Assembly: GCA_002428735.1 (NCBI GenBank)
Contig: DIXO01000001.1
Coordinates: forward strand, 57,580 to 121,579
Reading direction: 5' to 3'
From: Syntrophaceae bacterium UBA6078
GTDB lineage: Bacteria > Desulfobacterota > Syntrophia > Syntrophales > UBA2210
DNA length: 64,000 nt
The notes under the pieces are model-generated. The model was given only the letters and a program-made list of their open reading frames with translations. It did not search any database and was not told where the DNA came from. A program made the translations under genes and the position numbers. Positions 20,427 through 58,748 of the stretch are shown here, piece by piece; position 1 is the stretch's first letter; the number at the start of each line of letters is the position of its first letter.

Positions 20427-20993
20427 TTACTCCTCGCTAAACACCTGCGCGGAAAAAATAAATATCTGCGCATCCGGATCTTTCCATGCATCATCCCGAA
20501 GTCCCGCTTTTCTGCAGGTTTCCTCCAGAAAGGTAGTCCGGTCCCACTTGTACTCAGAGGCAACCTGGGGCAGGAGCAAACCGGAACGGAGCCCTTTGAC
20601 TATATAGATTCCATGTCGCCCCACTTCAATCTCGCCCACATCGTGTATCTGTTTCAGGGGAGTCAAGGCGGAAATTTCTATGTCGAGAGACTTGAGTTCA
20701 TCCTCGCGGACGGGAGGAAATCGGGGGTCGTTGAAAGCCGCCGCCTGTGCCATCTCCTCGACCGTTTCACCGAGGGGCTTTCGTGCCTCGATGAACCCGA
20801 TACAGCCCCTTAAACGGCCCTGTTTCTTGAGGGTGACAAAGGCGCCCCTCTTTTCCTTCAAAGCACCTGACCCGATCTCCGGGGGAGACATCTTTATCCC
20901 GGCAAGGCGGGCCTCAATACTCTTCCGAGCCATGGTCAGGAGCAGGCCTTTTTCCTGCTGTGTCAGCTGCACATCGAGAACTTTCTCGCTCAT
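20427..20993 (-). CDS. AMMECR1 domain protein (AmmeMemoRadiSam system protein A-like)
   Basis: 188-aa ORF with ...GAFVTLKKQGRLRGCIGFIEARKPL...AAFNDPRFPPV...LEIEISALTPL..., which is the AMMECR1 core pattern. There is a 4-nt overlap with the upstream Memo-like gene. Confidence 0.85.
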   Translation of the reverse strand: MSEKVLDVQLTQQEKGLLLTMARKSIEARLAGIKMSPPEIGSGALKEKRGAFVTLKKQGRLRGCIGFIEARKPLGETVEEMAQAAAFNDPRFPPVREDELKSLDIEISALTPLKQIHDVGEIEVGRHGIYIVKGLRSGLLLPQVASEYKWDRTTFLEETCRKAGLRDDAWKDPDAQIFIFSAQVFSEE

Positions 20994-21922
20994 TGCAGGC
21001 CCTTTCCACCTTTCTTATACAGGACGGCGGCGGCGTACCCCACGACGCCGTTTCTGTCCCCCGTGATGTCGCCGGAGTTCATGTAGGCCAGGATTTTTGC
21101 GCTGTCGGCCCCGAGCGCGGCAGCCACCAGTATGGTCACGGCCGCCGGTCCGGCGCCGCAGGCCTCGTATCTCCCGCTTTCAACGCCCCGGAGGAACCCC
21201 TCCGCGTCCATCTTTTCGATATATTCCAGAGCCGCCGAATCCATTGCAACGGCCGTGTCGTAACTGTGATAATGGGAGAGATCGGTACTGGCGATCACGA
21301 GCACCCTGCCATCTCCCACCGCCCGGATGATTGCTCCGGCCACCGCCCTGCAGGTGCCCATATCCTGAGTCCCCATCAGGATGGGAACAAAGGGTACGCG
21401 ATCGAAAACTACCTGGAGAAAGGGCACCTGGATCTCGAGAGAATTCTCCGGAAGGACGTGATTCGAGGTCAGTGATACCATGCCACCGCTGTATGCCGCT
21501 ATCTTTTCGGCAAGGTCCCTGTCAACGGGAGCGATTCCCAGGGGGGTCTCATACCCCTTCCCGTCATAGAGGGAAGCCCCTCTGAAAGATGCCCTGTGGC
21601 TTGGGCCGATGAGAATCACGGCATCGAAATCCTTCCCCTGCGCGGCCTTGTAAGCATACGCGGCCACCTGCCCGGAATAGACGTACCCGGCATGAGGAGA
21701 GATGACCCCTATCACCGTTCCATCAAGGGCATCCACCCGCGCACCGGCAAGATATCCTTCTATATCGGATCTCAAACGCGCCGGATCTGCCGGATACCAT
21801 GTCCCCGCGATCATTGGCTTTCGTACCATCTCCATTTCACCCCCTCCCCCCTCTGCGACAAGCGAAAGGGCAAGAAACATGACCAAGATTATACATGATA
21901 TGGTGCAGACATGCCTGTTCAT
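20990..21922 (-). CDS. Memo-like protein (AmmeMemoRadiSam system protein B-like)
   Basis: 310-aa ORF with the AGTWYPADP...ISPHAGYVYSG...DLSHYH pattern of the MEMO1 family. The N-terminal 25 aa are hydrophobic and signal-peptide-like. Alternative internal starts (MEMVRKPM) would remove them. Confidence 0.8.
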   Translation of the reverse strand: MNRHVCTISCIILVMFLALSLVAEGGGGEMEMVRKPMIAGTWYPADPARLRSDIEGYLAGARVDALDGTVIGVISPHAGYVYSGQVAAYAYKAAQGKDFDAVILIGPSHRASFRGASLYDGKGYETPLGIAPVDRDLAEKIAAYSGGMVSLTSNHVLPENSLEIQVPFLQVVFDRVPFVPILMGTQDMGTCRAVAGAIIRAVGDGRVLVIASTDLSHYHSYDTAVAMDSAALEYIEKMDAEGFLRGVESGRYEACGAGPAAVTILVAAALGADSAKILAYMNSGDITGDRNGVVGYAAAVLYKKGGKGLQ

Positions 21923-22086
21923 TCACACCTGCCGGTCATTTTAGGTTGCATCCATGATATAAGTGATTTTTTACCCTGTCAAGCCCAAGGGCTTCAGCCC
22001 AAGGGCTTCAGGCGGTCCAATGCGCCGAAAGGGCTATCCTGAATCAGACGACATGAAAGGGGATCACAAAAAGAAAGGCGGGAAGA

Positions 22087-22737
22087 TTATCGGCGGCTCT
22101 CTCGGTCAGGGCGCGCTGAAAATGCGCAGGCGGCATACCGGCCGTCGTGGCTCATGCTGAGAGTGACGGCAGAGGCGCATCCCGCAATCCGTACCACGGG
22201 AGGGGCCAGACCCTGACATCCTTTTGGACGGTAGATGCGGACAGCCTCCGGCGGCTCACACACATAGCCTGCTATGCCCCGTTTTGCCATTTCCCTGACA
22301 AAGGCGGATTCATCATCGGGTGAAAAACAGGTCCGGGGAATCTTCCGAATATCCCAGATGATGGTGTCAATTTCGTCGTCCGTCGCCGCGCCCAGGCAGT
22401 GAATGTAATTGCCGGTAATAAAAAAACGGACCGAAACCGGCCCTGAGGGAGTGTCAACGGTGCCTGATTCAGGTACGTGGCTGCCTTCGCCAAGCAGATA
22501 CACCTCATACCGCGCCGGCGCTGAGGAAACGGATGGAGAGCGCCTGCGTACCGCCTTGTACGCCGTTTCCTTCCCTGCCCACAGGCTCCAGAGCATTCTG
22601 TCCGGATCGCTGCTTTCCAGGATCTTTTGCCGCTCACCCGGCGTGAACACCCTGTTCATGAATGGGATATCCCGACTTTTCCCTCTTGCCTGAGGAGCCA
22701 TACGATCCACGACGTCGTTGCCGATCAAAATACTCAT
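22087..22737 (-). CDS. 4'-phosphopantetheinyl transferase family protein (AcpS-like N-terminal half plus ~100-aa C-terminal extension)
   Basis: 216-aa ORF with N-terminal ILIGNDVVD (Mg-binding Asp region) and WAGKETAYKA (the W/FxxKE motif) at AcpS-like spacing. The start overlaps the 3' end of the upstream acyltransferase by 104 nt. Confidence 0.7.
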   Translation of the reverse strand: MSILIGNDVVDRMAPQARGKSRDIPFMNRVFTPGERQKILESSDPDRMLWSLWAGKETAYKAVRRRSPSVSSAPARYEVYLLGEGSHVPESGTVDTPSGPVSVRFFITGNYIHCLGAATDDEIDTIIWDIRKIPRTCFSPDDESAFVREMAKRGIAGYVCEPPEAVRIYRPKGCQGLAPPVVRIAGCASAVTLSMSHDGRYAACAFSARPDRESRR

Positions 22738-23449
22738 CCTCCATCCGTGCCAGATGTTCCACGATCCGCAGCGCGCAGTCCCTCTGGGCCTTCAATCCCT
22801 TCCCTTCCATCTCCGGCACCAGGGTCTCTACCGTCATGGTGAAACGTTCACCAAACCGGGGGACACCAGTGTACGTTTTCTGGCCGTCTCCCCTGAGATA
22901 GATACACATGACCCGGCAACCGGGGGCATGGGCCACCAGACGCCCCACGCCGTAGGTAAAATTCTCCACATTGATCCGTCCCGTCCGGGAACGCCCCCCC
23001 TCGGGAAAGATGAGCAGGCTTTCGCCTCTGTTCAGGAGATGGAAGCACCGATCCATGGTTGATCTCATCTGGTCCCGGTCACCCCCCCGGCTGATGGGAA
23101 TGCATTTCGACAGATAGCAGACCGCCGTCAGAAAGGGGTTCTTCTGGAAATTCTTTCGTTCCGGCAGATTCCAGGGAAACCGCCGGTATCGGATCATATA
23201 CCCGTGCAGAGGCGCCATGGCCCACTGAACGATGACGGAATCTATCATGGTCAGGTGATTCGGACAGATGATCCAGGGCCCTTTGTGCTCCCTGAAGAGG
23301 CGGTGGATCGTTTGTCTCACTCTTCCGAGTTCCCGTACCCGGTAGCCCATCACCAGCATAAAAAGGTGGGCAAGGGGAGCTATGATGAAAATGGAGAGAC
23401 GCCCCAGAAAGCCCTGCAGGCGCAGGGAATATCTCGTTTTCCAGTTCAT
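22634..23449 (-). CDS. PlsC/LPLAT-family acyltransferase
   Basis: 271-aa ORF with an N-terminal hydrophobic anchor, the HX4D motif (NHLTMID) and FPEGGRSRTG, which are the hallmarks of lysophospholipid acyltransferases. Confidence 0.85.
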   Translation of the reverse strand: MNWKTRYSLRLQGFLGRLSIFIIAPLAHLFMLVMGYRVRELGRVRQTIHRLFREHKGPWIICPNHLTMIDSVIVQWAMAPLHGYMIRYRRFPWNLPERKNFQKNPFLTAVCYLSKCIPISRGGDRDQMRSTMDRCFHLLNRGESLLIFPEGGRSRTGRINVENFTYGVGRLVAHAPGCRVMCIYLRGDGQKTYTGVPRFGERFTMTVETLVPEMEGKGLKAQRDCALRIVEHLARMEDEYFDRQRRRGSYGSSGKREKSGYPIHEQGVHAG

Positions 23450-23453
23450 AATT

Positions 23454-23702
23454 TCACTGTAATTTCGTTTTTATTACGTCCACTGCATTCCCGATCGTTC
23501 GGATCTGATCGGCATCGTCGTCGTCAATCTCGATATCAAAGGTGTCCTCACACTTGATGATCACATCAACCAGACGCGCGGAATTGACCTTGAGATCGTC
23601 GAGTATGTGCGTATCCTTTGTCGCCCCGTCGAGCAGGGCCGGATCCTTGACGTATGGCCTCAAAATATTCACCATCTCCTGAAAAATCTGCTGTTCGTCC
23701 AT
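23454..23702 (-). CDS. Acyl carrier protein (atypical attachment-site context)
   Basis: 82-aa acidic protein. LDDLKVNSARLVDVIIKCEDTFDIEIDDDD aligns to the ACP helix II region, with NSA where canonical AcpP has DSL. Confidence 0.85.
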   Translation of the reverse strand: MDEQQIFQEMVNILRPYVKDPALLDGATKDTHILDDLKVNSARLVDVIIKCEDTFDIEIDDDDADQIRTIGNAVDVIKTKLQ

Positions 23703-23741
23703 TGTGTTCTCCTTAGTGAATGATTATGGGTCGAAAGCCGC

Positions 23742-25025
23742 TTACGCCTTCTCCCACTTTTTAAAAATCAGACATCCGTTCACATCTCCAAAACCGAAAC
23801 TGGCCTTGGCGATAATCTTCAGTTCGGGATATTCCATGACCGTCTGGGGAATCCTGTGGGCGAAGGCCGCGATCCCCGGGTGCACATCCTCGCAGTTGAC
23901 GGAGGGGTGCAGAAATCCCTTATACAACTGGAGCGCAACGGCAACGCTTTCGATGGCCCCTGCCGCCCCGAGGCAGTGCCCGATCATCGATTTTGTGGAG
24001 CTGATATAGGGGAAATCGTCCGGACCTCTTTCGAGGGCCCGGGACCAGTTTTCGACTTCCGAAGGATCGGCAAAGGTGGCGGTCAGGTGCCCGTTGATGG
24101 CATCGATTTCATGGGGAGATATGCCCGCGTCGGCCAGCGCCCCTCTGATGCAGCGCTGGACCCCTTCCGGGTTCGGCGCCGTCATGCTGCCGCCGTTTCG
24201 CTGTCCGCCGCAGTTGACGGCCCCTCCCAGTATCTCCGCATAGATCCTTGCTCCGCGGGATTGCGCGGCTTCCAGTTCTTCAAGGACCAGAACGGCTCCT
24301 CCGGCGCCGGGAACAAAACCATTGGCCGTGGCGCTCATGGGACGGGAGCCCTTTTCCGGCTGATCGTTGAACTTGCGGGCGATAACCCGCATGGAATCGA
24401 ATCCCGCCCATATGTAGGGCGACGCGCCTTCAGATCCCCCCGCCAGCATCCTCGTTGCCAGTCCCGCCCGTATCCTCCACAGCGCGTCCACAATAGCCTC
24501 CGTACCAGTGCTGCAGGCGGCGGAATTCGAGGTCACCTGGTTTCCCAGGGCCAGCAGACCTCCCACACGGGCGCTCGTTCCGCTGTTCATGACCTGTTCG
24601 ACAACCCTGCTCCCCATACGCCGTGTCTTTCCCTCATTCACCATGGGGACAATGGTTTCGGCAATCGTATCCATCCCCCCGATCCCGCACCCGAGGATGG
24701 CGCCCGTCTCCCAGTCCACCGGATCATCATCGCGGGGCACCTCGAGCCCCGCGTCTCGCCACGCATCGACAGCGGATACGGATATATATCCGATATTATC
24801 GTTCAGGGAGAGGAGCTTTTCATGATCGAAATAGCTCTTGCGAACTTCGTCAAATCCTTGCGGCATTCCCCCTATCTGACAGCCGAACTGCAGCTCCTTC
24901 AGCCGGGGGAAGAACCGGATCCCCGACCGCCCTTCGCGCAGGCCCTGTTCGAAACTGTCAAGACCGTAGCCGTTGGGGGCCACCACTCCCATTCCCGTGA
25001 TCACAACCCTAGGTTTCATGTGCAT
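23742..25025 (-). CDS. Beta-ketoacyl-ACP synthase, KAS I/II (FabB/FabF) family
   Basis: 427-aa ORF with the active-site Cys (NSAACSTGTEA) and two His (INGHLTAT, KSMIGHCLGAAG), so the Cys-His-His triad is intact. Confidence 0.9.
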   Translation of the reverse strand: MHMKPRVVITGMGVVAPNGYGLDSFEQGLREGRSGIRFFPRLKELQFGCQIGGMPQGFDEVRKSYFDHEKLLSLNDNIGYISVSAVDAWRDAGLEVPRDDDPVDWETGAILGCGIGGMDTIAETIVPMVNEGKTRRMGSRVVEQVMNSGTSARVGGLLALGNQVTSNSAACSTGTEAIVDALWRIRAGLATRMLAGGSEGASPYIWAGFDSMRVIARKFNDQPEKGSRPMSATANGFVPGAGGAVLVLEELEAAQSRGARIYAEILGGAVNCGGQRNGGSMTAPNPEGVQRCIRGALADAGISPHEIDAINGHLTATFADPSEVENWSRALERGPDDFPYISSTKSMIGHCLGAAGAIESVAVALQLYKGFLHPSVNCEDVHPGIAAFAHRIPQTVMEYPELKIIAKASFGFGDVNGCLIFKKWEKA

Positions 25026-25485
25026 CGACTCCTCTGCCGGTCAGCGTTCCGGAACAGATAAACTCCCCGTTTTCTTTCTCCATGCGGGTCCTCGTCTTCA
25101 GGTTTCCCCTGCGGAGATAGACCTTCTCAGCCTTGATAATGACACGCTCCCCGGGGTTTACGATAGCGTGAAACTCGCATTCATCGACCATGGCAAAGAG
25201 GGTGACCATCCGACCGATCTGTTCCAGGGATACGCCCCGAATCATAAGCAGGTATATGCCGAAGGCGACAACCCCGGTCTGCGCCATCGTCTCGATCAGA
25301 ATAACCCCGGGTGTAATGGGGCGGTCCGGGAAGTGCCCCCGGTAGAAGTATTCGTCGTCCCGGAACCGGTATGCTCCCACGATATGCTCACCATCCATCT
25401 CCAGTATGTCATCAATAAACCGGAACGGGCGCTGCTGAGGAACCATTGCAAGGACCTGCCGGACCGTTTCATGATCAGCCGCCAT
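25009..25485 (-). CDS. FabZ-like 3-hydroxyacyl-ACP dehydratase (hot-dog fold)
   Basis: 158-aa ORF with PFRFIDDILEMD...YFYRGHFPDRPITPGVILIETMAQ, the FabZ signature including the catalytic His. Confidence 0.85.
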   Translation of the reverse strand: MAADHETVRQVLAMVPQQRPFRFIDDILEMDGEHIVGAYRFRDDEYFYRGHFPDRPITPGVILIETMAQTGVVAFGIYLLMIRGVSLEQIGRMVTLFAMVDECEFHAIVNPGERVIIKAEKVYLRRGNLKTRTRMEKENGEFICSGTLTGRGVDAHET

Positions 25486-26227
25486 AGAGCCCCCCGCTCA
25501 CGTGGATCACGCTTCCCGTAACGTATGTTCCCCTGCAGGCGAGGAAGGCCACGACATCGGCGACCTCCTCGGGACGGCCCATCCTCCCCAGAGGGATATT
25601 CTGAGCAATCCCGTGCCGCACCTCGTCGGAAAGTTCTGCGGTCATGGCCGTATCGATGAAACCCGGCGCCACGGAATTGACGAGAATCTCGCGCCCCTGC
25701 AATTCCCTGGTCAGGGATTTTGTAAAGGCATCAAGAGCGGCCTTCTCCATGGTATAGGGGATCTGCCATTTGTTCCCCGTATGCCCCACCACGCTGGAGA
25801 TGTTGATAATCCTGCCCTTTCCCGTGCGCAGCATGAAGAGGCGCAGTATCCGTTTGGTGAGATACCAGGTTCCGCGAAGCGTCGAACGCTGGAGGTCGAA
25901 CTCTTCGATCCTCATGGCATTGATATCGTTATTGACGGAAATGCCGGCATTGTTGACCAAAACATCGACACGGCCCGCCTCTTTTTTGATCGATGTGACC
26001 ATTGTCTCAACATCATCCACATCAGCGAGATCGGCCTTCAGGAGAAACCCCTCTCCAATCCTCGAGAGAACTGCCCGCGCATCTGTCTCGCTCCGACGGT
26101 AATGGATACCGATCCTGAACCCCTCACGGGCGAGGGCCTCACAACATGCGGCCCCGATCCCCGTCCCGCCCCCCGTGACAATGGCCACCGGCGTTGATCC
26201 TTCATCCCTGCTGCCTGATCGGTTCAT
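25475..26227 (-). CDS. 3-oxoacyl-ACP reductase-type short-chain dehydrogenase (FabG-like)
   Basis: 250-aa ORF with a TGGGTGIGAA Rossmann motif, the NNAG motif and the catalytic S...YTMEK (YxxxK). Confidence 0.85.
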   Translation of the reverse strand: MNRSGSRDEGSTPVAIVTGGGTGIGAACCEALAREGFRIGIHYRRSETDARAVLSRIGEGFLLKADLADVDDVETMVTSIKKEAGRVDVLVNNAGISVNNDINAMRIEEFDLQRSTLRGTWYLTKRILRLFMLRTGKGRIINISSVVGHTGNKWQIPYTMEKAALDAFTKSLTRELQGREILVNSVAPGFIDTAMTAELSDEVRHGIAQNIPLGRMGRPEEVADVVAFLACRGTYVTGSVIHVSGGLYGG

Positions 26228-26820
26228 AGTTCCCTCTTGATAATGCCCCCCAGCGCAAGGGGTGAGCGTTTTGGATAATCCGGATAGACAATCCCTTTGA
26301 AGATCCCGGCGCGGGCATTCTTGACAGTCATGATCAGTTCGTCATCCACAAATACCCTGCCATCTCCGATGACGATACTCGACCCGGAACCCTTGAGATT
26401 GGAAAATCGTTTTACATCAACTTCATATCGGACGGTCTTGTTGTAGGGCCGGACCTGCCCGTTGAAGATAATCTCCTCAGAGCCCAGTGCCCTGCCGCCC
26501 CCCAATCCCCCTTTCCAGCAACAGTAAAAACCCAGAAGCTGCCAGATCGCGTCAACGCACAGGCAACCCGGCTGCACGGGATCGCCCGGCATGTGACACT
26601 GAAAATACCAGGCGTCCATCCTGATATCCTGCTCGGCGACAATGGACCCTTTCCTTCCATCAGCCCCGATGGAGATGATGCGATCCATCATCAGAAAAGG
26701 CGGCGCGGGGAGTCGGGAGTCGAAATCTTGGGGAGGGTCATCCACTAGCCGTCCGTAGGAAAAGGTAATGAGATCCTCAAGATCAAAGCTGTCCTTCTTC
26801 ATGAATTCAGAGTATTTCAC
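26224..26820 (-). CDS. FabA-like 3-hydroxyacyl-ACP dehydratase/isomerase
   Basis: 198-aa ORF with LPAPPFLMMDRI...WYFQCHMPGDPVQPGCLCVDAIWQLLGF, matching the FabA signature. Both the catalytic His and Asp appear to be present. Confidence 0.8.
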   Translation of the reverse strand: MKYSEFMKKDSFDLEDLITFSYGRLVDDPPQDFDSRLPAPPFLMMDRIISIGADGRKGSIVAEQDIRMDAWYFQCHMPGDPVQPGCLCVDAIWQLLGFYCCWKGGLGGGRALGSEEIIFNGQVRPYNKTVRYEVDVKRFSNLKGSGSSIVIGDGRVFVDDELIMTVKNARAGIFKGIVYPDYPKRSPLALGGIIKREL

Positions 26821-26847
26821 GGTTTCCTCTTCATTGGCCTGTCTGCC

Positions 26848-27834
26848 TTATGCCGCGATCCTCAGCATGGCCCGGACCCAGGTAAGCCCAGCCCCCACCA
26901 GGGCCAGCGCGATATGGTCCCCGGCGCCGAGTTCGTCCCAGTGCTGGCTCAGGACAGTCGGTGCTCCCGAGCCTCCGGTGTTGCCGTAATCGATAATATT
27001 ATGCCAGTGGTCATCTTCCGATATTCCGCACCGCTCGCTCACGGTCCTGAGCATACCGAAATTCGCCTGATGCCCGACAAACTTGAATCTGCCACAGCCG
27101 GCAGGATACAGCTCCTGTAAATCTCTGAGCAGTTCAGTCGTCTTTCGTATGGCGAACCCCTGAACGACCCTCCCATCCTGATCGAAATGCCCCACGCGGG
27201 GGACGCGGACCTTGTCCCAGGAGCGGGGGTTCGAATCGCAGAAAAAGGCCTCGAATATCATTTTCGAAGGGATGGACGCGGATACGACAGCTGCGCTGGT
27301 TCCGTCCCCGAAAAGGGGGGCGGACCGCCGATCCGAATAATCGATGATACGGGTCAAATTCTCGGGATTGACCACCAGAATAAAGGGCGGCAGCGCCTCC
27401 GGTTTCATGTCGGAGAGAAACTTCATCTGCATCCCGAAGGTGGAACAGGCTGAATTCAGGTCAAAACAGGGGGCGTCGATCCCGATCTCTCCCGCCACAC
27501 ATGCCGCCTCCGCCGGCGTGACATGATCGGGTGCGGAGCTTCCGGAGACTACCATCCCGATATCATGGGACTCCAACCCCGCCCGTTCCAGCGCCTGCTC
27601 AGCGGCACGCGCCGCTGTCTGGGCGTTCGTATAGAGACAGGCCTCCATGGCGGCCCGCGAGTCACGGTTTTTCGTCGTCCTGATGTAATCCAGCGGCAGG
27701 GCCGTGCGGCGGGTATGGATGCCGACCCGTTCCAGAATCCACTCCTCGCTGCAGCCGATATCCAGTTCCTCCAGAAACCGGTTCGTAAGGACAGTCTCCG
27801 GATGAAAATGACCTAATCCGTGAAGATACAACAT
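26848..27834 (-). CDS. 3-oxoacyl-ACP synthase III (FabH/KASIII) family
   Basis: 328-aa ORF with the Cys-His-Asn triad contexts DLNSACSTF, GHQAN and YGNTGGSG. Confidence 0.85.
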   Translation of the reverse strand: MLYLHGLGHFHPETVLTNRFLEELDIGCSEEWILERVGIHTRRTALPLDYIRTTKNRDSRAAMEACLYTNAQTAARAAEQALERAGLESHDIGMVVSGSSAPDHVTPAEAACVAGEIGIDAPCFDLNSACSTFGMQMKFLSDMKPEALPPFILVVNPENLTRIIDYSDRRSAPLFGDGTSAAVVSASIPSKMIFEAFFCDSNPRSWDKVRVPRVGHFDQDGRVVQGFAIRKTTELLRDLQELYPAGCGRFKFVGHQANFGMLRTVSERCGISEDDHWHNIIDYGNTGGSGAPTVLSQHWDELGAGDHIALALVGAGLTWVRAMLRIAA

Positions 27835-27837
27835 ATT

Positions 27838-29037
27838 CTATACGAGCTCCCGTCCGATGATCATATCCTGGACCTCTCTGACCCCTTCATATATGTCGAT
27901 GATATGGGCATCCCTCGCAAGCTTTGATATCTCATACTCGGACATGAACCCGTAACCGCCGTGAAGATGGAGCCCTTCCTTGGCGCAGAAAAGCGCCGCT
28001 TCGGCGGCGACATTCTTCGCCAGGGAGGCGTATACGCCTCTGTCCTCGGCACACTCCTGGACCTTGTCCGCCGCCTTCATCAGGGCCAGATCCGCCAGCT
28101 CAACCCGTTTCCACATTTCCACCAGGGTATCCCGCGCGACGGGGAGGTCGCAGATCCTCTGCCCGAACTGTTTGCGTTCCTTCGTGTATTCAAGGGTAAG
28201 GTCAAATGCCCGCTTCGCAAGGCCGACACCGATAGCCGCCACCATGGGCCTCGCGTAATCGAGGACGTCGACGGCATACTTGAAGCCCAGCCGCCGGTTT
28301 CCGATGATCTGATAATCCTCGATGACCACATCCTCAAAGGTAACCGTCGCCGTATTCGAGAGACGCTGGCCGAGCTTGTCCTCCGGTTTCCCCGTGGTAA
28401 TCCTCCCTCCCCCCGGCAGGGTGATCTCCCGTCCTCCCGTGGGCTGGGCGGTTATATCCGCCGCGGACACCGCGCTGCAGGGTATGATGACACAGGCCAT
28501 CATCAGACCCCGGGGACTTCCCGTCTTGCAGAAAACCGTAAACTGTGACGCATATGAAGCATTGGTAATGAAACACTTTTCCCCGTTGAGGATGTACCGT
28601 CCGTCATCTCCCTTTCTGATGAAGGTGGTCATGGCGGCATTGTCGGAGCCCGCTCCGGGTTCGGTCAGGCAGAAGGCTGAAATGATGGGAGCGTCCACGA
28701 AGGGTTTGAGAAATTTCTCTTTCTGCTCTTCCGTTCCATTCTGTGTAATCACAAAATTCGCCAGATCGTTGCACATGGCCGACGTGGAGATACCGGTATC
28801 GCCGTAGGACAGTTCCCGGACTATCAGAGCGGATGAAATGATATCCACCTCGAATCCCTTCACCGACTCGGGAATGGAAAGGTTCATCAGTCCCATCTCC
28901 CATGCCTTTTTGATAATATCGAGGGGGAACGCATGGTCGCGCTCCCGCTCCATCACGCTCGGCGTTATCTCGTTTTTGACAAATCTCCGGACCGTTTCCA
29001 CATACATTTTCTGGTCGTCGGCAAGCGTAAAATCCAT
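27838..29037 (-). CDS. Acyl-CoA dehydrogenase family flavoprotein
   Basis: Contains LTEPGAGSD and C-terminal YEGVREVQDMIIGREL motifs. The likely start is the ATG at 29037 (MDFTLADDQKMYVETVRRF); the track ORF starts at 29085. It carries a ~25-30-aa Gly/Thr-rich insertion (SAVSAADITAQPTGGREITLPGGGRITTG) before the KLG(Q/I)R segment. Confidence 0.85.
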   Translation of the reverse strand: MDFTLADDQKMYVETVRRFVKNEITPSVMERERDHAFPLDIIKKAWEMGLMNLSIPESVKGFEVDIISSALIVRELSYGDTGISTSAMCNDLANFVITQNGTEEQKEKFLKPFVDAPIISAFCLTEPGAGSDNAAMTTFIRKGDDGRYILNGEKCFITNASYASQFTVFCKTGSPRGLMMACVIIPCSAVSAADITAQPTGGREITLPGGGRITTGKPEDKLGQRLSNTATVTFEDVVIEDYQIIGNRRLGFKYAVDVLDYARPMVAAIGVGLAKRAFDLTLEYTKERKQFGQRICDLPVARDTLVEMWKRVELADLALMKAADKVQECAEDRGVYASLAKNVAAEAALFCAKEGLHLHGGYGFMSEYEISKLARDAHIIDIYEGVREVQDMIIGRELV

Positions 29038-29170
29038 ATGGTGCCTTACTCTCCTTAAAAATTGATGTCTTAACAGAGCCTCCATCGCCTTCCGGGGCGA
29101 GGAATCACTGCGCCGGAACCGTTCTCAATCTCTCACACGTCTTATAAACGGGAGAATCGGAATGCAACGG

Positions 29171-30142
29171 TCAACCGTCATGATGGTTTCTGCAACCCGG
29201 TTCCTTTTCAAACACTTTCCGGGCTCCGGAAAGGGTGGTGACAGACTGGCATTCAACGCCCATGGTCTTGAAAAACCCTCTGAGAGGGCGGCCGGGGCCT
29301 ATTTCAAGGGTAAAATCCGCGGTCGCGGCAAGGGTTTCCATATTCTTCCTCCACCGTACCGTATTGCTGAGCTGCGTAACCAGGCGGTCAACGATTTCCG
29401 CGCGGTTTTCCGAATGAAACAGGCCGGTCACATTCGACGTCACCCGCCTCGCGTTGGCTGGCTGTACCTGTCCGTCGATTCCGCGGAGCACATCCCGGAA
29501 CCCTTCCTCGATGGGCTCCATATAACGGCTGTGAAACGGGGCGCTCACATTCAGCGGAACAAAACGGAAAGAGGGGTTGTTCCCTACGGAGTTTTTGATC
29601 CTCTTTTCCGCTTCGGGCATTGCCTTCGAATCACCGCTGACCACGACCTGATCAGCGGAATTGTCATTCGCCAGATCAATCGGCAGATCATCCAGCGCCC
29701 GCAGAACCGCAGAAACATCCAGTCTATCAGCTATCACGGCTGCCATTCCGCCCAATCCCACGGGAGTTGCCTCCTGCATGAGGCGTCCGCGCGTCTGAAC
29801 CGCCGTCAGGGCTTCGGAAAAGGGGAGTACTCCCGCGGCGACCAGTGCGGCATACTCGCCCAGGCTGTGTCCCCCGAAATACTCCGGTTCAAAGCCATAG
29901 AGAATACCGAGTCCGCGAAGCATGGCGATCTCCGTCGCCAGGATGCAGGGCTGGGCGTATTCGGTCAGGTCCAACCGCTTGTCCTCCTCAAAACAGAGGG
30001 AGGAAACATCCCATCCCAGGGCATCCGACGCCTCGTGGTAGGTATCCCTGCTGATGGGGACGGCGTCGTAAAAGTCTTTCCCCATGCCGGGGCGCTGTGA
30101 CCCCTGCCCCGGGAAAACGACTGCTATCCTTGGTTCGCCCAT
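29171..30142 (-). CDS. fabD: Malonyl-CoA:ACP transacylase
   Basis: Contains VFPGQGSQRPGMG and GHSLGEYAALV (active-site Ser). The ATG at 30142 is preceded by GAGGTG; the track start at 30148 is GTG. Confidence 0.88.
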   Translation of the reverse strand: MGEPRIAVVFPGQGSQRPGMGKDFYDAVPISRDTYHEASDALGWDVSSLCFEEDKRLDLTEYAQPCILATEIAMLRGLGILYGFEPEYFGGHSLGEYAALVAAGVLPFSEALTAVQTRGRLMQEATPVGLGGMAAVIADRLDVSAVLRALDDLPIDLANDNSADQVVVSGDSKAMPEAEKRIKNSVGNNPSFRFVPLNVSAPFHSRYMEPIEEGFRDVLRGIDGQVQPANARRVTSNVTGLFHSENRAEIVDRLVTQLSNTVRWRKNMETLAATADFTLEIGPGRPLRGFFKTMGVECQSVTTLSGARKVFEKEPGCRNHHDG

Positions 30143-30190
30143 TTCCACCTCTGCGTCTCACATCTCGATGTGACCTTCCTCCCATGTCTA

Positions 30191-30206
30191 CGCACATTAC
30201 ATGCCA
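30191..30206 (-). promoter_or_regulatory. Candidate sigma-54 (-24/-12) promoter of the FAS-like cluster
   Basis: The minus strand reads TGGCATG-TAAT-GTGCG against the consensus TGGCACG-N4-TTGCW. The invariant GG and GC are at exact spacing. The -12 element lies about 49 nt upstream of the fabD ATG. Confidence 0.55.
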
Positions 30207-30231
30207 TCGTATTCCTGCCTGACCGGATTTG

Positions 30232-30244
30232 CATCAACTGATTG
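30232..30244. promoter_or_regulatory. IHF-like site between the palindrome and the sigma-54 promoter
   Basis: CATCAACTGATTG matches WATCAANNNNTTR at 12 of 13 positions. It lies between the -24/-12 element and the upstream palindrome. Confidence 0.25.
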
Positions 30245-30306
30245 AAATGTAAAGGGCTATGCAGCCATAATCCCGTCCTCTCCCCAGTCGGCATCGCAGG
30301 TTTTGA

Positions 30307-30343
30307 TGCGTAATCCCCTTCGCAGTCGGTAATAGATTACGCA
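30307..30343. promoter_or_regulatory. Perfect 9-bp inverted repeat, candidate enhancer (UAS) for a sigma-54 activator
   Basis: TGCGTAATC (30307-30315), 19 nt, then GATTACGCA (30335-30343). It is centred about 120 bp upstream of the -24 element, in the divergent region shared with the kinase/activator operon. Confidence 0.4.
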
Positions 30344-30482
30344 CCTGCACAAAGCAAATCCCCATGGCCGGAACGCCTGATTTTGTTCGGGCACAGGACG
30401 AAAGGAGAGACGGATTCGTAGTTCCTGGCCGATCTTGTATTGCCGCTGCGTATATGATAGCTTTTTTGCAAGGAGAGCGCAT

Positions 30483-32012
30483 ATGGAGACCTTTGCACTG
30501 GCGGCGATCAGCCTCACGATTGCGGCTTCGCTGTTCATAAAAAGAACGAAACGGCCCCTCCATATCACGTTTGCCTCCCTGTGCCTCGGACTCTTTCTTG
30601 AAAAAACGGGGGTATTTTTCGGAGGGATCTTCCCCAATGGCTTCTGGAAGACACTGCACGTCCTGGGTCTTCTGGTGATACCTCCGCTGCTGATCGCCTT
30701 CAGCGTCATTTTCCTTGGTAACCACAGAGGGTATTCAAAAGGCCCGGCGGCATATGCGGGCATCGGAAGTCTGATCGCCGCCGCCCTATATTTTCCCTTC
30801 CTCTTCCACCGACCTTACGCCGTGGGTATTCTCTACCTCTACGTGGGAGCCACGCTGGCGTACTGTCTCGTCATGCTCTTTCAGGCGATACGCCATGCAC
30901 CCCGCAATGGGGAGCGTAAGAGGTTTATCTATGTGGCCGCAGCCTGCTCCGCCGCCGGCATCCTGAGTCTCACGGACATAGCACTCCGGTACCACCCCGG
31001 GGTCCCCCCCTTATCCGATATTTCACTGGCGTTTCTCATCTACTTCATCCTCGTCATCATTACCTATCCCCGCCTTCCGGAACTTCACGAAATAATGGTT
31101 CGGGCAGCCATCGTCTTCCTCCTGATGATTTTTGCAACGGTCACCTTTTATCTTGTCCTCGCCATGTTCGGAGACGGGGAGCATATCCCTCCGTTCAATC
31201 TGATATTCATGACGGCCTTCATCATCGTCATCTTTATAGACCCTGTTAAGCTGATTCTTAAGAAGGCGGGGATCTATCTCTTTCTCGAAGGGAAAGGATC
31301 GCTGAACTCCCTCTATACCATCGACGAAGAGATGGAGAGGGAGAAGGCTCTCCTCCTTGAAGAGATGGCGACCACCCTCGCGCACGAGATCCGCAATCCT
31401 CTCGGATCGATAAAAGGAGCCGCCCAGTACCTGAGATCGGACAGCGATTCAGAGGAGAATCGTGAACTCTTCAATGTCATTACCAGCGAAATCGACCGGC
31501 TGAACAATGTGGTCTCACGCTTCCTCAACTACGCGAAACCGGGGGCGATCAATCCCGATACCCGGAGTATGTCGGATATCCTGGAAAGAATTGTCACCCT
31601 GATCTCGTCACAGCATCTCGCTGAGGGGATCATCATCAAAAAGGACATCCCGCAGGACCTTCCCCCCGTCTGGGTTGACGGGGAACAGATGATGCAGGCG
31701 GTCCTGAATGTCACCCTGAACGCCGTGGAGGCCATGCCCACGGGGGGTACCCTGACCCTTTCGGCGAGGGTTGTGGATCCTGAAAGCGGCCCCTGGATCG
31801 AAATCGCCGTTGAGGATACGGGAGAGGGAATCGAGAAAAAAGCGATAAAACGTCTGTTCAAACCCTTTTATACAACCAAGGAAAAGGGCACAGGGATCGG
31901 CCTTGCCATCTCTCAGCAGATCGTCAAAGCCCACGGAGGGACTATCGACGTCACCTCCTCCCCGGGACGGGGATCGGTCTTTCACATACGGATACCGGTC
32001 CAAAGCCCATGA
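30483..32012 (+). CDS. Polytopic membrane sensor histidine kinase
   Basis: The ATG at 30483 (METFALAAISL) is followed by about 8-9 hydrophobic helices with short loops over ~270 aa. Then come the H-box LAHEIRNPLGSIKG and the ATPase N/G boxes (NAVEAM, EDTGEGI, GTGIGLAI). Confidence 0.88.
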   Translation: METFALAAISLTIAASLFIKRTKRPLHITFASLCLGLFLEKTGVFFGGIFPNGFWKTLHVLGLLVIPPLLIAFSVIFLGNHRGYSKGPAAYAGIGSLIAAALYFPFLFHRPYAVGILYLYVGATLAYCLVMLFQAIRHAPRNGERKRFIYVAAACSAAGILSLTDIALRYHPGVPPLSDISLAFLIYFILVIITYPRLPELHEIMVRAAIVFLLMIFATVTFYLVLAMFGDGEHIPPFNLIFMTAFIIVIFIDPVKLILKKAGIYLFLEGKGSLNSLYTIDEEMEREKALLLEEMATTLAHEIRNPLGSIKGAAQYLRSDSDSEENRELFNVITSEIDRLNNVVSRFLNYAKPGAINPDTRSMSDILERIVTLISSQHLAEGIIIKKDIPQDLPPVWVDGEQMMQAVLNVTLNAVEAMPTGGTLTLSARVVDPESGPWIEIAVEDTGEGIEKKAIKRLFKPFYTTKEKGTGIGLAISQQIVKAHGGTIDVTSSPGRGSVFHIRIPVQSP

Positions 32013-32105: not shown

Positions 32106-33509
32106 ATGGGGCCAGACATGATCGGCGCAAAACCATTAGAAAAGAAGACCATATTGGTCGTCGACGATGAAAAGAGCATGCGGCTCGTTCTGTCCGCCAT
32201 GCTCAAAAAGGAAGGGTACGGAGTTGAGACTGCCGCCGACGGTTTCGAAGCCCTCGAGCTCATCAGGAGGAAGGATATCTCCGTCGTCGTCACCGATCTT
32301 AAGATGCCCCGTCTCGGCGGCATCGGCCTCTTGCGCCGGGTCATGGAAAAGCACCCCTCAGTGCCGGTCATCATCATCACAGCCCATGGCACCATAGAAA
32401 ACGCCGTCGAGGCCGTCAAGAAGGGGGCCTTCGACTATATTACCAAACCCTTCGATCAGGAAGACCTGAAAAACGTGATTGCCAAGGCGGTACAGACAAA
32501 ATCACTGAGCGACCGTGAGGTGGTCTTTGATTCCGTGGAGGGCGACCGCACCGTCCTCATAGGGACCAGCAAACCGATGCTGGATATATACGACATTATC
32601 AAAACGGTCGCGCCGACCCCGACTACCATTCTGATCACCGGAGAAACGGGGACGGGGAAAGAGCTCGTCGCCCGCGCGATTCATGAAAACAGTCCCCGAA
32701 GAGAAAATCCCTTTATCAAGATCAACTGCGCCGCCATCCCCGAAAACCTGATGGAAAGCGAACTGTTTGGATACGAGAAGGGGGCCTTCACCGGGGCCGT
32801 CCACAGAAAACCCGGAAGATTCGAACAGGCCAACACGGGAACACTGTTTCTCGATGAAATCGGCGATCTGCCGAAAGACATGCAGGCAAAGCTGCTCCGG
32901 ACGATCCAGGACCGGGAATTCGAACGGGTTGGCGGGGTACAGACCATCACGATCGACGTCAGACTGATCGCCGCCACGAACAGAGATCTTCTCCAGGATG
33001 TTCTGGACAAACGGTTCCGGGAAGATCTCTACTACCGGATCAATGTCATGCCCATCATTCTGCCGCCATTGCGGGACAGAAAGAATGACATCCCGCTCCT
33101 CCTGAATCACTTCATGGATAAATTCAACAGGAAACTGGACCGACACGTACGATGGATAGAACCGGAGGCTGAGCGGTTCTTTTGCGAATACAACTGGCCC
33201 GGGAATATCAGAGAGATGGAGAATCTCCTTGAGAGGCTCATTCTCCTTACGAGCGACGACACCATCCGCTACGACGCGCTCCCCGTCGAAATTCTGAACC
33301 AGCTCACTCTTGAGACGGTCGGGCCGGACGTAACCAGAGGCTCCATCAAAGAGATCGTCAGAAGCCGGGCCGAAGCGGCGGAGAGTCATATTATCGCGCG
33401 GGTTCTCGAACAGTGCGGTAAGAACGTAACCCGGGCGGCCGAGCGGCTGGGGATCAGCCGCAAGGGGCTGCAGCTGAAAATGATCAAGTACGGCTTGAGG
33501 AAACAATAA
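32106..33509 (+). CDS. Sigma-54-dependent response regulator (NtrC family)
   Basis: 467-aa ORF with a REC domain (ILVVDDE...VVTDLKMP), AAA+ Walker A GETGTGKE, the GAFTGA sigma-54 contact motif and a C-terminal HTH (NVTRAAERLGISRKGL). Confidence 0.92.
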   Translation: MGPDMIGAKPLEKKTILVVDDEKSMRLVLSAMLKKEGYGVETAADGFEALELIRRKDISVVVTDLKMPRLGGIGLLRRVMEKHPSVPVIIITAHGTIENAVEAVKKGAFDYITKPFDQEDLKNVIAKAVQTKSLSDREVVFDSVEGDRTVLIGTSKPMLDIYDIIKTVAPTPTTILITGETGTGKELVARAIHENSPRRENPFIKINCAAIPENLMESELFGYEKGAFTGAVHRKPGRFEQANTGTLFLDEIGDLPKDMQAKLLRTIQDREFERVGGVQTITIDVRLIAATNRDLLQDVLDKRFREDLYYRINVMPIILPPLRDRKNDIPLLLNHFMDKFNRKLDRHVRWIEPEAERFFCEYNWPGNIREMENLLERLILLTSDDTIRYDALPVEILNQLTLETVGPDVTRGSIKEIVRSRAEAAESHIIARVLEQCGKNVTRAAERLGISRKGLQLKMIKYGLRKQ

Positions 33510-56212: not shown

Positions 56213-57199
56213 ATGGTAAAAAAATTGTGTTTCGGGATTGCCGTCGGTCTGTTCTTTGTGTATCTCTCATTCAGAGGCGTCGATCCGGGGGGTATTGCCG
56301 ACGGTCTGAAAGGCGTAAAATTTTCCTGTATCCCTCCTGTCCTCTTTCTCCTCGTTTTTATACAGTTCCTCAGATCATACCGGTGGGGCATCATCCTGAA
56401 ACCGATCAGGTCCATCGATCAGGGTTCTCTCTTTTCCGTAACCAGCGTGGGGTTTCTGGCCGTGGTCGCCATCCCTGCCCGGATCGGCGAACTTGCGCGC
56501 CCCTACCTCATCAGCGCAAAGACAGGCGTCAGCATGTCTTCAGCGGTGGGAACAATACTGGTGGAGCGTGTATTTGACGGCCTGAGCGTCCTTGCGATCT
56601 TCTTCGTCGTCGTTCTGCTCATGCCCCTCCCCCCCTGGCTGATCAGGGGAAGCCTCTTCTTTCTTTGCGTAACGCTCGTATTCCTCAGTCTCATGATCTT
56701 GCTCATCTGCAAGAGAGAGGCCACTCTCGGTTTCATTGCGCCTCTCCTGCGGAGACTCCCTGAACGATGGCGCCTCAGAGTGGTTGGTATGATCCATAAC
56801 CTGATCGACGGCTTCAAGATCATTTCAGATACGAGATCCATCTGCTATGTGGCTCTTCTTTCCATCGTCATATGGGTGATCAACGCAGTGGTCATGTACG
56901 TCTTCTTCTTCGCCTTCGGCTTTGATCTCCCCTTCGTGGCGGCCCTGGTTCTTATGATCATCATCATCCTGGGGATCGCCATCCCCACCGCGCCTGGTTT
57001 TATCGGGAACTGGCATTTCTTCTGCATCCTGGGACTGGGCCTGTTCGGCATCCACAAGGCCGACGCCCTCGCCTACGCCATCGTGCTCCATTTCATCAGC
57101 ATGAGCACGATCGCACTGTTGGGAATCATCTTCCTTCCCTTCAACCGGTTTTCTCTGTCCGATATAAAAGGCCGTCTTTCCTCAGGCCATGATGGGTAA
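56213..57199 (+). CDS. UPF0104 / lysyl-PG-synthase-TM-like (flippase-like) integral membrane protein
   Basis: The ATG at 56213 gives MVKKLCFGIAVGLFFVYLSFRGVD..., then ...LRSYRWGIIL..., with about 8 TM helices. This is the typical N-terminal pattern of the family. Confidence 0.7.
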   Translation: MVKKLCFGIAVGLFFVYLSFRGVDPGGIADGLKGVKFSCIPPVLFLLVFIQFLRSYRWGIILKPIRSIDQGSLFSVTSVGFLAVVAIPARIGELARPYLISAKTGVSMSSAVGTILVERVFDGLSVLAIFFVVVLLMPLPPWLIRGSLFFLCVTLVFLSLMILLICKREATLGFIAPLLRRLPERWRLRVVGMIHNLIDGFKIISDTRSICYVALLSIVIWVINAVVMYVFFFAFGFDLPFVAALVLMIIIILGIAIPTAPGFIGNWHFFCILGLGLFGIHKADALAYAIVLHFISMSTIALLGIIFLPFNRFSLSDIKGRLSSGHDG

Positions 57200-57376: not shown

Positions 57377-58741
57377 TCATCCCTTTTGTTTCACTTCATC
57401 GAGTCCGTAGGCCTTGATCTTCTTGTGCAGATTGCTCCGTTCCAGCCCGATGGCCTTGGCCGTTTTCTTGATGTTCCACTTGTTTTCCGCCAGTTTCTGC
57501 GCAATATAGTCTTTCTCAAACTCCTCTTTCGCTCCCCTGAGGGAATCGCCGTCCCCGGAAGAAGCAGCGGGAGCGGCGGCGTGGCTTTCCCTCGAGAGAG
57601 GCGGTATGTCTCCGGCGGTAATGATTTCCGACGGGGATGTGATCGCCAGCCGCTCGATGATATTCTTCAACTCTCTCACGTTCCCGGGCCAGGTGTGCTC
57701 CATGAGAACGGCAAGGGCGGCATCGGCAATATGTTTCTCCGCCTTTGCCTCCTTGAGCGAAAAATCCCTCATGAATCGCCTTGCCAGGAGAGGAACATCC
57801 TCGATCCGTTCTCTCAGCGGGGGAACATGGAGCGGGATAACGTTCAACCGGTAGTACAGGTCCTGCCGGAAGCGCCCCTGCTCCATTTCGTATTCCAGAT
57901 CCTTATTGGTCGCCGCGATCACCCGGACGTCGGTATCGATAATCCGCGTCCCCCCTACCCTCTCGAACTTTTTTTCCTGAAGGATCCGGAGGATCTTTGC
58001 CTGCGCCTTCAGACTCATATCGGCGACCTCGTCAAGAAAAATGGTCCCTTTATTGGCAAGATCGAACTTCCCCCTCTTTTTCTCGGTGGCCCCGGTAAAA
58101 GCACCCTTTTCGTGTCCGAAGAGCTCGCTCTCGATCAACTCTTCGGGGATGGCGGCGCAATTCACCTCTATAAAAGGCTTGTTGGAACGGCTGCTCTGCC
58201 GGTGCAGCGATCGGGCGACGAGTTCCTTCCCCGTGCCATTCTCCCCCATGATCAGGATCCACGCGTTGGTGGGGGCGATGATCTGTATCATCTCCCGCAA
58301 TTCGATGATCACCTTGCTTGCCCCGTCGATATCGTGCAGCTGCCCGTTTTTTAACCGCCTGTTTTCCTCCTCCAGGCGCACGATATCCAGGGCGTGATTG
58401 ACGGCAAGAAGGGTCTTGTCAAGGGACAGGGGCTTCTCCACAAAATCGAAGGCCCCCAGTTTTGTCGTTGTGACCGCCGATTCAACCGTTCCATGTCCGG
58501 ATATCATGATAACCTGCATCTGGGGATATTTCGCCTTGATCCGTTTCAGCGTCTCGACGCCGTCGATTCCCGGAAGCCATATGTCCAGGAGAACGAGGCT
58601 GGGGAGTTCCTCCTCGATCCTGTCGAGACACGCCTCTCCGCTCTGAGCGGTCAGCACCTCGTACCCTTCGTCAGAAAGGATCCCCTTCAATGACTGGCAG
58701 ATAGTCTCTTCATCATCCACAACCAGTATCGTCTCGTTCAT
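57377..58741 (-). CDS. Sigma-54-dependent response regulator (NtrC/NtrX-like)
   Basis: 454-aa ORF with a REC domain (ILVVDDE...VLLDIWLP), Walker A GENGTGKE, GAFTGA and a C-terminal HTH (NIKKTAKAIGLERSNL). Confidence 0.92.
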   Translation of the reverse strand: MNETILVVDDEETICQSLKGILSDEGYEVLTAQSGEACLDRIEEELPSLVLLDIWLPGIDGVETLKRIKAKYPQMQVIMISGHGTVESAVTTTKLGAFDFVEKPLSLDKTLLAVNHALDIVRLEEENRRLKNGQLHDIDGASKVIIELREMIQIIAPTNAWILIMGENGTGKELVARSLHRQSSRSNKPFIEVNCAAIPEELIESELFGHEKGAFTGATEKKRGKFDLANKGTIFLDEVADMSLKAQAKILRILQEKKFERVGGTRIIDTDVRVIAATNKDLEYEMEQGRFRQDLYYRLNVIPLHVPPLRERIEDVPLLARRFMRDFSLKEAKAEKHIADAALAVLMEHTWPGNVRELKNIIERLAITSPSEIITAGDIPPLSRESHAAAPAASSGDGDSLRGAKEEFEKDYIAQKLAENKWNIKKTAKAIGLERSNLHKKIKAYGLDEVKQKG

Positions 58742-58748
58742 GTCTCTC

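Follow-up and report, generated by a model that had tools for sequence, protein, structure and literature searches.

A predicted sigma-54 control region between an accessory fatty acid synthesis-like operon and a divergent two-component system in a Syntrophaceae bacterium

The nearest characterised analogue of the system described here is AtoS/AtoC-atoDAEB of Escherichia coli, in which a kinase and an NtrC-type activator drive a sigma-54 lipid-related operon lying beside the regulator genes. Another point of comparison is DesK/DesR of Bacillus subtilis, a sensor of membrane thickness and fluidity that controls a desaturase; DesK has five helices and a HisKA_3 domain, and DesR is a NarL-type regulator working at a sigma-A promoter. 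Genes of type II fatty acid synthesis (FAS II), the kind of genes concerned here, are under the transcriptional control of FabR, FadR, FapR, FabT, DesT and FasR. To our knowledge, the known FAS II regulators are all one-component proteins that bind a ligand and repress or activate sigma-70-type promoters, and none of those just named is a sigma-54 enhancer-binding protein or a member of a two-component system. At the DNA level, AtoC binds a palindrome of ~40 bp that precedes the sigma-54 atoDAEB promoter and is composed of two inverted 20-bp sites (PMC3118216). For the orp operons of Desulfovibrio vulgaris, two reports describe divergent operons with palindromic enhancers under the control of OrpR, integration host factor (IHF) and sigma-54 (PMC3897727, PMC8359166). 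Here we analysed a stretch of 64,000 nucleotides from Syntrophaceae bacterium UBA6078 (a member of the Syntrophales; contig DIXO01000001.1, positions 57,580 to 121,579 of the forward strand), hereafter called the window, and more specifically the 340-bp spacer between a fabD-like gene and a divergently transcribed sensor kinase gene. Judging from the sequence, we consider it quite probable that an accessory FAS II-like operon of ten genes is controlled from this spacer by sigma-54 in an enhancer-dependent manner, through the neighbouring kinase-activator pair. An original prediction, made from the letters of the window, had proposed the same core elements (a sigma-54 promoter, an enhancer and a cognate divergent pair), and this proposal is now supported by conservation at fixed distances in ~65 promoters and by an enhancer motif that follows orthologues of the activator into a second genomic context.

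The sigma-54 promoter and the tandem-dyad enhancer

The elements of the spacer that carry the argument are the following:

30206-30191, minus strand: sigma-54 (-24/-12) promoter TGGCATGTAATGTGCG, with GG at 30205-30204 and GC at 30193-30192
30307-30324, strand-neutral: enhancer dyad A, TGCGTA-ATCCCC-TTCGCA, matching TGCGWA-N6-TWCGCA at 12/12 positions
30326-30343, strand-neutral: enhancer dyad B, TCGGTA-ATAGAT-TACGCA, matching at 10/12 positions

Orthologous loci were sampled at several distances. Species-representative genomes scanned with an alignment of the kinase gave 26 orthologous kinase-activator loci (L001-L026), 8 of which have an FAS-like cluster divergent from the kinase, and seven close relatives, with kinases 69-90% identical, were aligned separately. 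A scan of metagenomes with an alignment of the acyl-CoA dehydrogenase (ACAD) of the cluster gave 80 further cluster loci, 66 of them with usable upstream sequence. The pooled set comprised 65 non-identical orthologous promoters, and 222 coding windows were used as controls for the motif scores of the metagenome set.

The promoter TGGCATGTAATGTGCG agrees with 13 of 16 consensus positions (TGGCAC-N5-TTGCW-like). Its GG and GC are separated by exactly 10 bp, and its -12 C lies 49 nt from the ATG of the fabD-like gene (30142), a start that the alignment of relatives keeps as ATGGG; both the GG/GC spacing and the distance of 49 nt are as originally predicted, and the motif is conserved in relatives. 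The transcription start of the fabD-like operon would then fall near 30180. The pattern TGGCAY-N6-TGC occurs twice in the 64-kb window when both strands are counted, against 0.87 copies expected, and for the correct strand of the 340-bp intergenic region the expectation is ~0.002 copies. The second copy in the window, TGGCATTTCTTCTGCA at 57011, is within a coding open reading frame (ORF) and was treated as a chance match. In the alignment of the seven close relatives GGCATG.AATGTGC is invariant, while its surroundings are poorly conserved. At a larger distance, a strong -24/-12 motif is present on the strand of the cluster in all eight genome loci with an FAS-like cluster divergent from the kinase, and a motif scoring at least 17 lies downstream of the best tandem site in 60/66 metagenome loci, compared to 23% of the coding controls. 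The 65 pooled promoters give the consensus TGGCATG.AT..TGCT, where GG and TGC reach ~2 bits.

Upstream of this promoter, the two 18-bp dyads stand one base apart, in a 19-bp register, and together form a 37-bp unit (30307-30343) whose four half-sites, TGCG(T/A)A, alternate in orientation. The original prediction had seen here one perfect palindrome, TGCGTAATC-N19-GATTACGCA, about 120 bp from the -24 element. The arms (30307-30315 and 30335-30343) are indeed 100% complementary, and in the window 120 bp separate the centre of the enhancer from the -24 GG; what does not hold is the single site, as the arms are the outer half-sites of two dyads. A perfect inverted repeat of 9 nt with a spacer of at most 30 nt is expected by chance ~0.04 times per 340 bp. 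The whole tandem site, at a score of at least 19/24, was found once in the 64-kb window. Each of 15 genome loci also has one copy, and 20 shuffled windows together gave one. The same threshold is reached in 50/66 metagenome cluster loci, and the maximum over the 222 coding controls is 17. A lone dyad at 10449, inside a 1381-aa ORF and with no partner, was treated as chance.

Both the promoter motif and the palindrome, whose loss from orthologous intergenic regions would have spoken against a regulatory role, are thus kept across ~65 orthologous promoters, and the pooled set gives the enhancer consensus TGCGTA-N6-TTC.CA-C-TGCGAA-N6-TACGCA. In nearly all of the 65 promoters (L002-L168) the enhancer centre lies 113-122 or 128-133 bp from the GG. 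This conservation bears directly on one alternative, namely that there is no enhancer function, the motifs being chance matches or the palindrome forming a hairpin in RNA or DNA, for instance a terminator or attenuator. One -24/-12 match in 128 kb is unremarkable by itself, and the palindrome folds with a z-score of -2.3, but the presence of both motifs at a conserved spacing across ~65 promoters effectively refutes this explanation, which we regard as scarcely credible. In the alignment of the seven close relatives the tandem dyads are conserved while the inner spacers vary. The spacers of relatives are not complementary either (1.9 of 6). Half-sites that are kept around non-complementary spacers point therefore to a protein site and not to a hairpin. 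Moreover, no Rfam family matched 30050-30550 and no terminator-like site was found. The z-score is explained by the dyads, and an RNA element was rejected. The enhancer is probably not even transcribed, because it is upstream of both the promoter described above and the one proposed below for the kinase operon.

Between the enhancer and the promoter there is a third, partly conserved element:

30232-30249, strand-neutral: A/T-rich element, holding CATCAACTGATTG (plus strand) and ATTTCA (minus strand, 30248-30243)

An IHF site had been predicted at this place, and CATCAACTGATTG (plus strand, 30232-30244) does match the IHF consensus WATCAANNNNTTR at 12/13 positions. With at most one mismatch the consensus occurs 28 times in the window against 34 expected, which is at chance frequency, and no match was found in the distant orthologous loci. 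Among the 65 promoters 16 have such a match compared to 9.2 expected, a weak enrichment. What is conserved is an ATTTCA..TT block, invariant and at a fixed position in the seven close relatives, and, throughout the family, a segment from -60 to -30 relative to the -24 T with 69-77% A+T against ~50% around it. These features suggest that 30232-30249 is likely a bending or architectural element, for which IHF is an unproven binder. The element may well not be an IHF site and could instead be the -35 of a plus-strand sigma-70 promoter, the site of another factor or intrinsically bent A/T DNA, and we give this group of explanations slightly under an even chance. In their favour are the chance frequency, the weak enrichment and the missing distant matches just described, a CAATAAT-like A/T motif that is frequent in the segment among relatives and takes the place of the IHF match in many of them, and a sigma-70-like sequence on the plus strand, TTGAAA-18-CATAAT (30242-30271, 10/12 matches), whose -35 overlaps the ATTTCA block. 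Relatives, however, do not preserve the -10 of this sigma-70-like sequence, and an insertion of 9-10 bp disrupts its spacing in them, while the invariant block and the general A/T tract fit a bending site.

The divergent kinase-activator pair and its probable link to the enhancer

On the other side of the spacer the divergent operon consists of two genes, preceded by a promoter of a different type:

30483-32012, plus strand: sensor histidine kinase, with nine predicted transmembrane helices (residues 1-266) followed by DHp (H-box LAHEIRNPL) and HATPase_c
32106-33509, plus strand: NtrC-family response regulator, with REC, AAA+ containing GAFTGA, and a Fis-type HTH_8
30435-30463, plus strand: probable sigma-70-type promoter of the kinase-activator operon, with -35 TTGTAT (30435-30440), TG (30455-30456) and -10 TAGCTT (30458-30463)

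The prediction of a divergent GAFTGA activator with a partner kinase is borne out by the Pfam domains and by the translation. For the activator, Pfam returned Response_reg (7.7e-33), Sigma54_activat (7e-74), AAA_lid_14 and HTH_8 (2.1e-9), and the translation contains the signature residues of REC, the Walker A sequence GETGTGKE and GAFTGA; the closest solved structures are of the NtrC family (4l4u, 1ny5). The kinase has HisKA and HATPase domains in Pfam. Its sensor part, expected to hold about 8-9 helices with short loops, shows nine hydrophobic segments within residues 1-258, connected by loops of 5-15 residues, and the AlphaFold model also places nine helices in the membrane region (pLDDT ~75-89). 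A fold search with the kinase matched cytoplasmic kinase cores only, with ZraS at the top, and returned no match for the membrane domain. The kinase of the window has no match at E <=1 to PF16927 (HisKA_7TM) or PF07695 (7TMR-DISM), and several full-length kinase homologues with 46-52% identity have precomputed matches to one of these two families. The nearest named relatives of the pair are AtoC/AtoS and ZraR/ZraS. In NCBIfam the best match of the activator is AtoC (NF008469), with 489.1 bits against a cut-off of 714, and that of the kinase is AtoS (NF008468), with 222.3 against 646 and over the catalytic core only (residues 281-508).

In the alignment with the seven relatives, the conserved block proximal to the kinase (30431-30463) reads TTGTAT-N14-TGA-TAGCTT, with an extended -10, and at the equivalent place other clades have CTTGAC(T/A)-17-TATxxT. 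This promoter falls short of the score required in the consensus scan and is assigned here as probable. Autoregulation of the kinase operon by sigma-54 was considered and rejected, as no plus-strand -24/-12 motif precedes the kinase gene and the conserved sigma-70-type promoter stands there instead; the sensor system appears therefore to be expressed independently of sigma-54.

The link between the pair and the enhancer comes from a second genomic context. Among the genome loci in which no FAS cluster adjoins the kinase, seven have the tandem site and a TGGCAC -24 ahead of a gene for a small Lys/Ala-rich protein, which is located either just upstream of the kinase or downstream of the activator:

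L007:1517-1834, L009:5372-5815, L010:6396-6830, L013:7492-7860, L014:6410-6769, L015:10583-10930, L023:6447-6824 (all outside the window): small-protein genes

At L014 a single tandem site separates the FAS cluster from the small-protein gene and would serve both. As the same site is found beside the pair in two unrelated contexts, we assign the enhancer by co-localisation to the adjacent activator, which most likely binds it. The two-component system is therefore not strictly dedicated to the FAS-like cluster, as had been proposed: in other Syntrophales the same enhancer precedes the small-protein gene. The small protein, apparently a second member of the regulon in those Syntrophales as far as the motifs indicate, has ~115-190 aa, with a Lys/Ala-rich N-terminal tail, a conserved core containing HDHWHL and a C-terminal CFRYALP. 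Its homologues are found in Syntrophales only, a Pfam search with it returned no match, and its AlphaFold model (mean pLDDT 34.5) is unusable. The -12 of the small-protein promoters reads TGA or TGT, not TGC. In L009, L010 and L023 the gene is directly upstream of the kinase-activator genes, with which it may form an autoregulated operon.

Several observations weigh against the proposed sigma-54 control by the adjacent pair. Within the 64-kb window no ORF with an RpoN box was found, and the sole indication that the genome has rpoN is the presence of two GAFTGA activators in the window. Dyad B is imperfect, about 16/66 cluster loci score below 19/24, one dyad being displaced by 1 bp in several of them, and both the enhancer and the promoter motif are missing from a subgroup of about six. 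The two classes of enhancer-promoter spacing differ by ~13-14 bp, which is no clean helical turn, and because this difference is not 10.5 we make no claim of helical phasing. Finally, the link between activator and site is one of association, and the adjacency of the two is not universal, as 11/26 kinase-activator loci lack a tandem site within 7 kb.

This last count also bears on the possibility that the enhancer is real but bound by another sigma-54 activator encoded elsewhere, the adjacent pair controlling something else. Such an explanation finds further support in the 23/33 cluster loci that have no kinase within 5 kb and nevertheless retain the tandem site, and in a second GAFTGA activator (454 aa) encoded in the window at 57377-58741 (minus strand). 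On the other side, the site accompanies kinase-activator orthologues both at the FAS cluster and at the small-protein gene; no other regulator recurs upstream in the 15 kinase-less, site-keeping cluster loci inspected, where unrelated housekeeping genes are found; and the HTH segment of the activator is conserved between the window and L015. On balance we judge a foreign activator improbable. The gene of the second activator is directly downstream of a 731-aa ORF (58749-60944, minus strand) that is probably its kinase; together (57377-60944) they make up another, independent two-component system of the sigma-54 type.

If control by the adjacent pair is accepted, the parts can be assembled into a putative mechanism. 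The kinase-activator operon would be read from its own sigma-70-type promoter, and sigma-54 RNA polymerase would bind TGGCAT-N6-TGC (30206-30192) as a closed complex. On perceiving its cue, the nine-helix membrane kinase would phosphorylate the REC domain of the activator, which would occupy the four half-sites at 30307-30343, probably as two dimers seeding the active oligomer. Looping of the DNA over ~120 bp, through the A/T-rich and probably bent or IHF-bound segment, would bring the activator to the polymerase, and ATP hydrolysis would open the promoter, allowing transcription of the ten-gene operon to about 22087.

The target operon and the possible signal

The operon downstream of the sigma-54 promoter was annotated with Pfam and NCBIfam:

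22087-30142, minus strand: FAS II-like operon of ten genes
29171-30142, minus strand: FabD-like
27838-29085, minus strand: ACAD
26848-27834, minus strand: KASIII
26224-26820, minus strand: FabA
25475-26227, minus strand: FabG
25009-25485, minus strand: FabZ-like
23742-25025, minus strand: KAS I/II
23454-23702, minus strand: ACP
22634-23449, minus strand: PlsC-like acyltransferase
22087-22737, minus strand: PPTase

The genes are tightly packed, with tiny intergenic gaps or overlaps, and no excess of terminators was found across the cluster. Most of the enzymes score below the equivalog cut-offs of the housekeeping models of NCBIfam (bits against cut-off: fabD 259.8/260.9, fabH 138.9/292.1, fabG 229.1/297.75, fabF 295.7/493.75, ACP 43.2/70.45), and FabA is the sole cluster enzyme that passes one (NF003509, 200.7/124). 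Given these scores, the cluster is considered an accessory, divergent FAS II. It contains no enoyl-ACP reductase of the FabI, FabK, FabL or FabV type. The ACAD is the most conserved protein of the cluster (68-89% identity between loci). NCBIfam matches it best to acryloyl-CoA reductase, although below the cut-off, and its role may be that of the enoyl reductase or of an acyl-ACP dehydrogenase.

Just past the PPTase gene lies a strong sigma-70-like promoter, TTGACA-17-TATCAT (11/12; 21954-21982, minus strand), which probably begins a separate unit (minus-strand ORFs 20990-21922 and 20427-20993) and so marks the end of the sigma-54 operon. The composition of the cluster varies among loci. Smithella-type clusters (L018, L143, L147, L149, L158, L166) lack FabA and have, between FabD and ACAD, an insert gene (4155-5606 in L018) encoding a 483-aa protein that resembles carboxyltransferase 5S and the alpha subunit of oxaloacetate decarboxylase. 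L161, L163, L164 and L167 have a different gene order, with neither the enhancer nor the sigma-54 motif.

The gene content also bears on the purpose of the regulation. A beta-oxidation-like, catabolic cluster was judged unlikely given FabD, ACP, PPTase and the PlsC-like acyltransferase. A related possibility is an AtoS/AtoC-like system, induced by an organic or fatty-acid substrate for the processing of that substrate and unconnected with the homeostasis of the membrane. NCBIfam matches the pair best to AtoC and AtoS, albeit below the cut-offs, the cluster contains an ACAD with acryloyl-CoA reductase as best match, and the metabolism of fatty acids is established for Syntrophales. However, the cluster also holds FabD, its own ACP, a PPTase, KAS enzymes that decarboxylate and a PlsC-like acyltransferase, all of which speak for synthesis and lipid incorporation; and the kinase, almost wholly embedded in the membrane, has neither the PAS nor the periplasmic domain of AtoS. 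We regard substrate induction as quite unlikely.

As for the cue, the sensor consists of nine helices with essentially no extramembrane loops, which suggests that the signal is internal to the membrane; the kinase most likely senses it there, and the sensing of membrane or lipid state would be compatible with such an architecture. A more ambitious proposal, which we put forward tentatively and think rather doubtful in its entirety, is that the kinase monitors the bilayer itself, in its physical or chemical state, and that sigma-54 then switches on a complete second FAS to remodel the acyl chains, with a reductive step possibly of the flavin ACAD type and not of the FabI/K/L/V type. The locus would then be a DesK-like homeostatic circuit made of NtrC-type parts, the first sigma-54 and two-component control of FAS II, conserved across Syntrophales.

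Comparison with known systems

Control of an FAS-like cluster by sigma-54 had been called unusual in the original prediction, and indeed no published precedent for control of FAS II by sigma-54 and an enhancer-binding protein was found in the literature searched, whose coverage was incomplete, so that this is absence of evidence only. FAS II targets are not listed in the sigma-54 regulome of Desulfovibrio vulgaris (PMC4641369), nor in a cross-phylum sigma-54 analysis of 2025 (PMC12316311). Francke et al. (PMC3162934) likewise report no FAS II targets, and propose as a general theme that sigma-54 controls the cell exterior, phospholipid precursors included, a theme with which the present case agrees. 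What is new here is the FAS II operon as a target and the type of sensor, while the mechanism is that of a standard NtrC-type system; because the mechanism is textbook, the value of the locus lies in its target, its sensor type and the breadth of its conservation.

If it is true, a conserved two-component sigma-54 switch acting on an accessory FAS II would represent a new regulatory mode for the synthesis of membrane lipids. It would also offer a handle on the way in which slow-growing syntrophs adjust their membranes, as the 37-bp site, the promoter and the kinase are all defined. In addition, the combination of four TGCG(T/A)A half-sites with TGGCATG-N4-NTGCT is usable for mapping the regulon in genomes and metatranscriptomes of Syntrophales.

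Among deltaproteobacterial systems, the orp operons resemble this locus in being divergent and in combining a palindromic enhancer with sigma-54. They differ in having a one-component, redox-sensing regulator and unrelated targets; moreover, the dependence on IHF is experimental there, whereas the IHF site is a candidate from sequence here. The likeness to DesK/DesR is an analogy of logic only, namely a sensor made of transmembrane helices alone that controls genes altering acyl chains; the two systems share no homology in sensor or output domains, and a role in fluidity sensing would be carried over from it by analogy.

With NtrB/NtrC at glnAp2 and with NtrC1 and NtrC4 of Aquifex, the system shares the REC-AAA+(GAFTGA)-HTH architecture and the tandem dyads located ~100-140 bp upstream of -24/-12. 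NtrB, however, is a soluble, PII-responsive kinase devoted to nitrogen, in contrast to the integral membrane kinase and the lipid synthesis operon found here. AtoS/AtoC shares with the present system an activator site that lies upstream of the start and consists of two inverted repeats, but it serves the breakdown of short-chain fatty acids, whereas the target here is a biosynthetic FAS II. The proteins of the window also score far below the equivalog cut-offs of the AtoSC pair, the half-sites read TGCG(T/A)A, and the kinase has nine membrane helices in place of the PAS and periplasmic domains.

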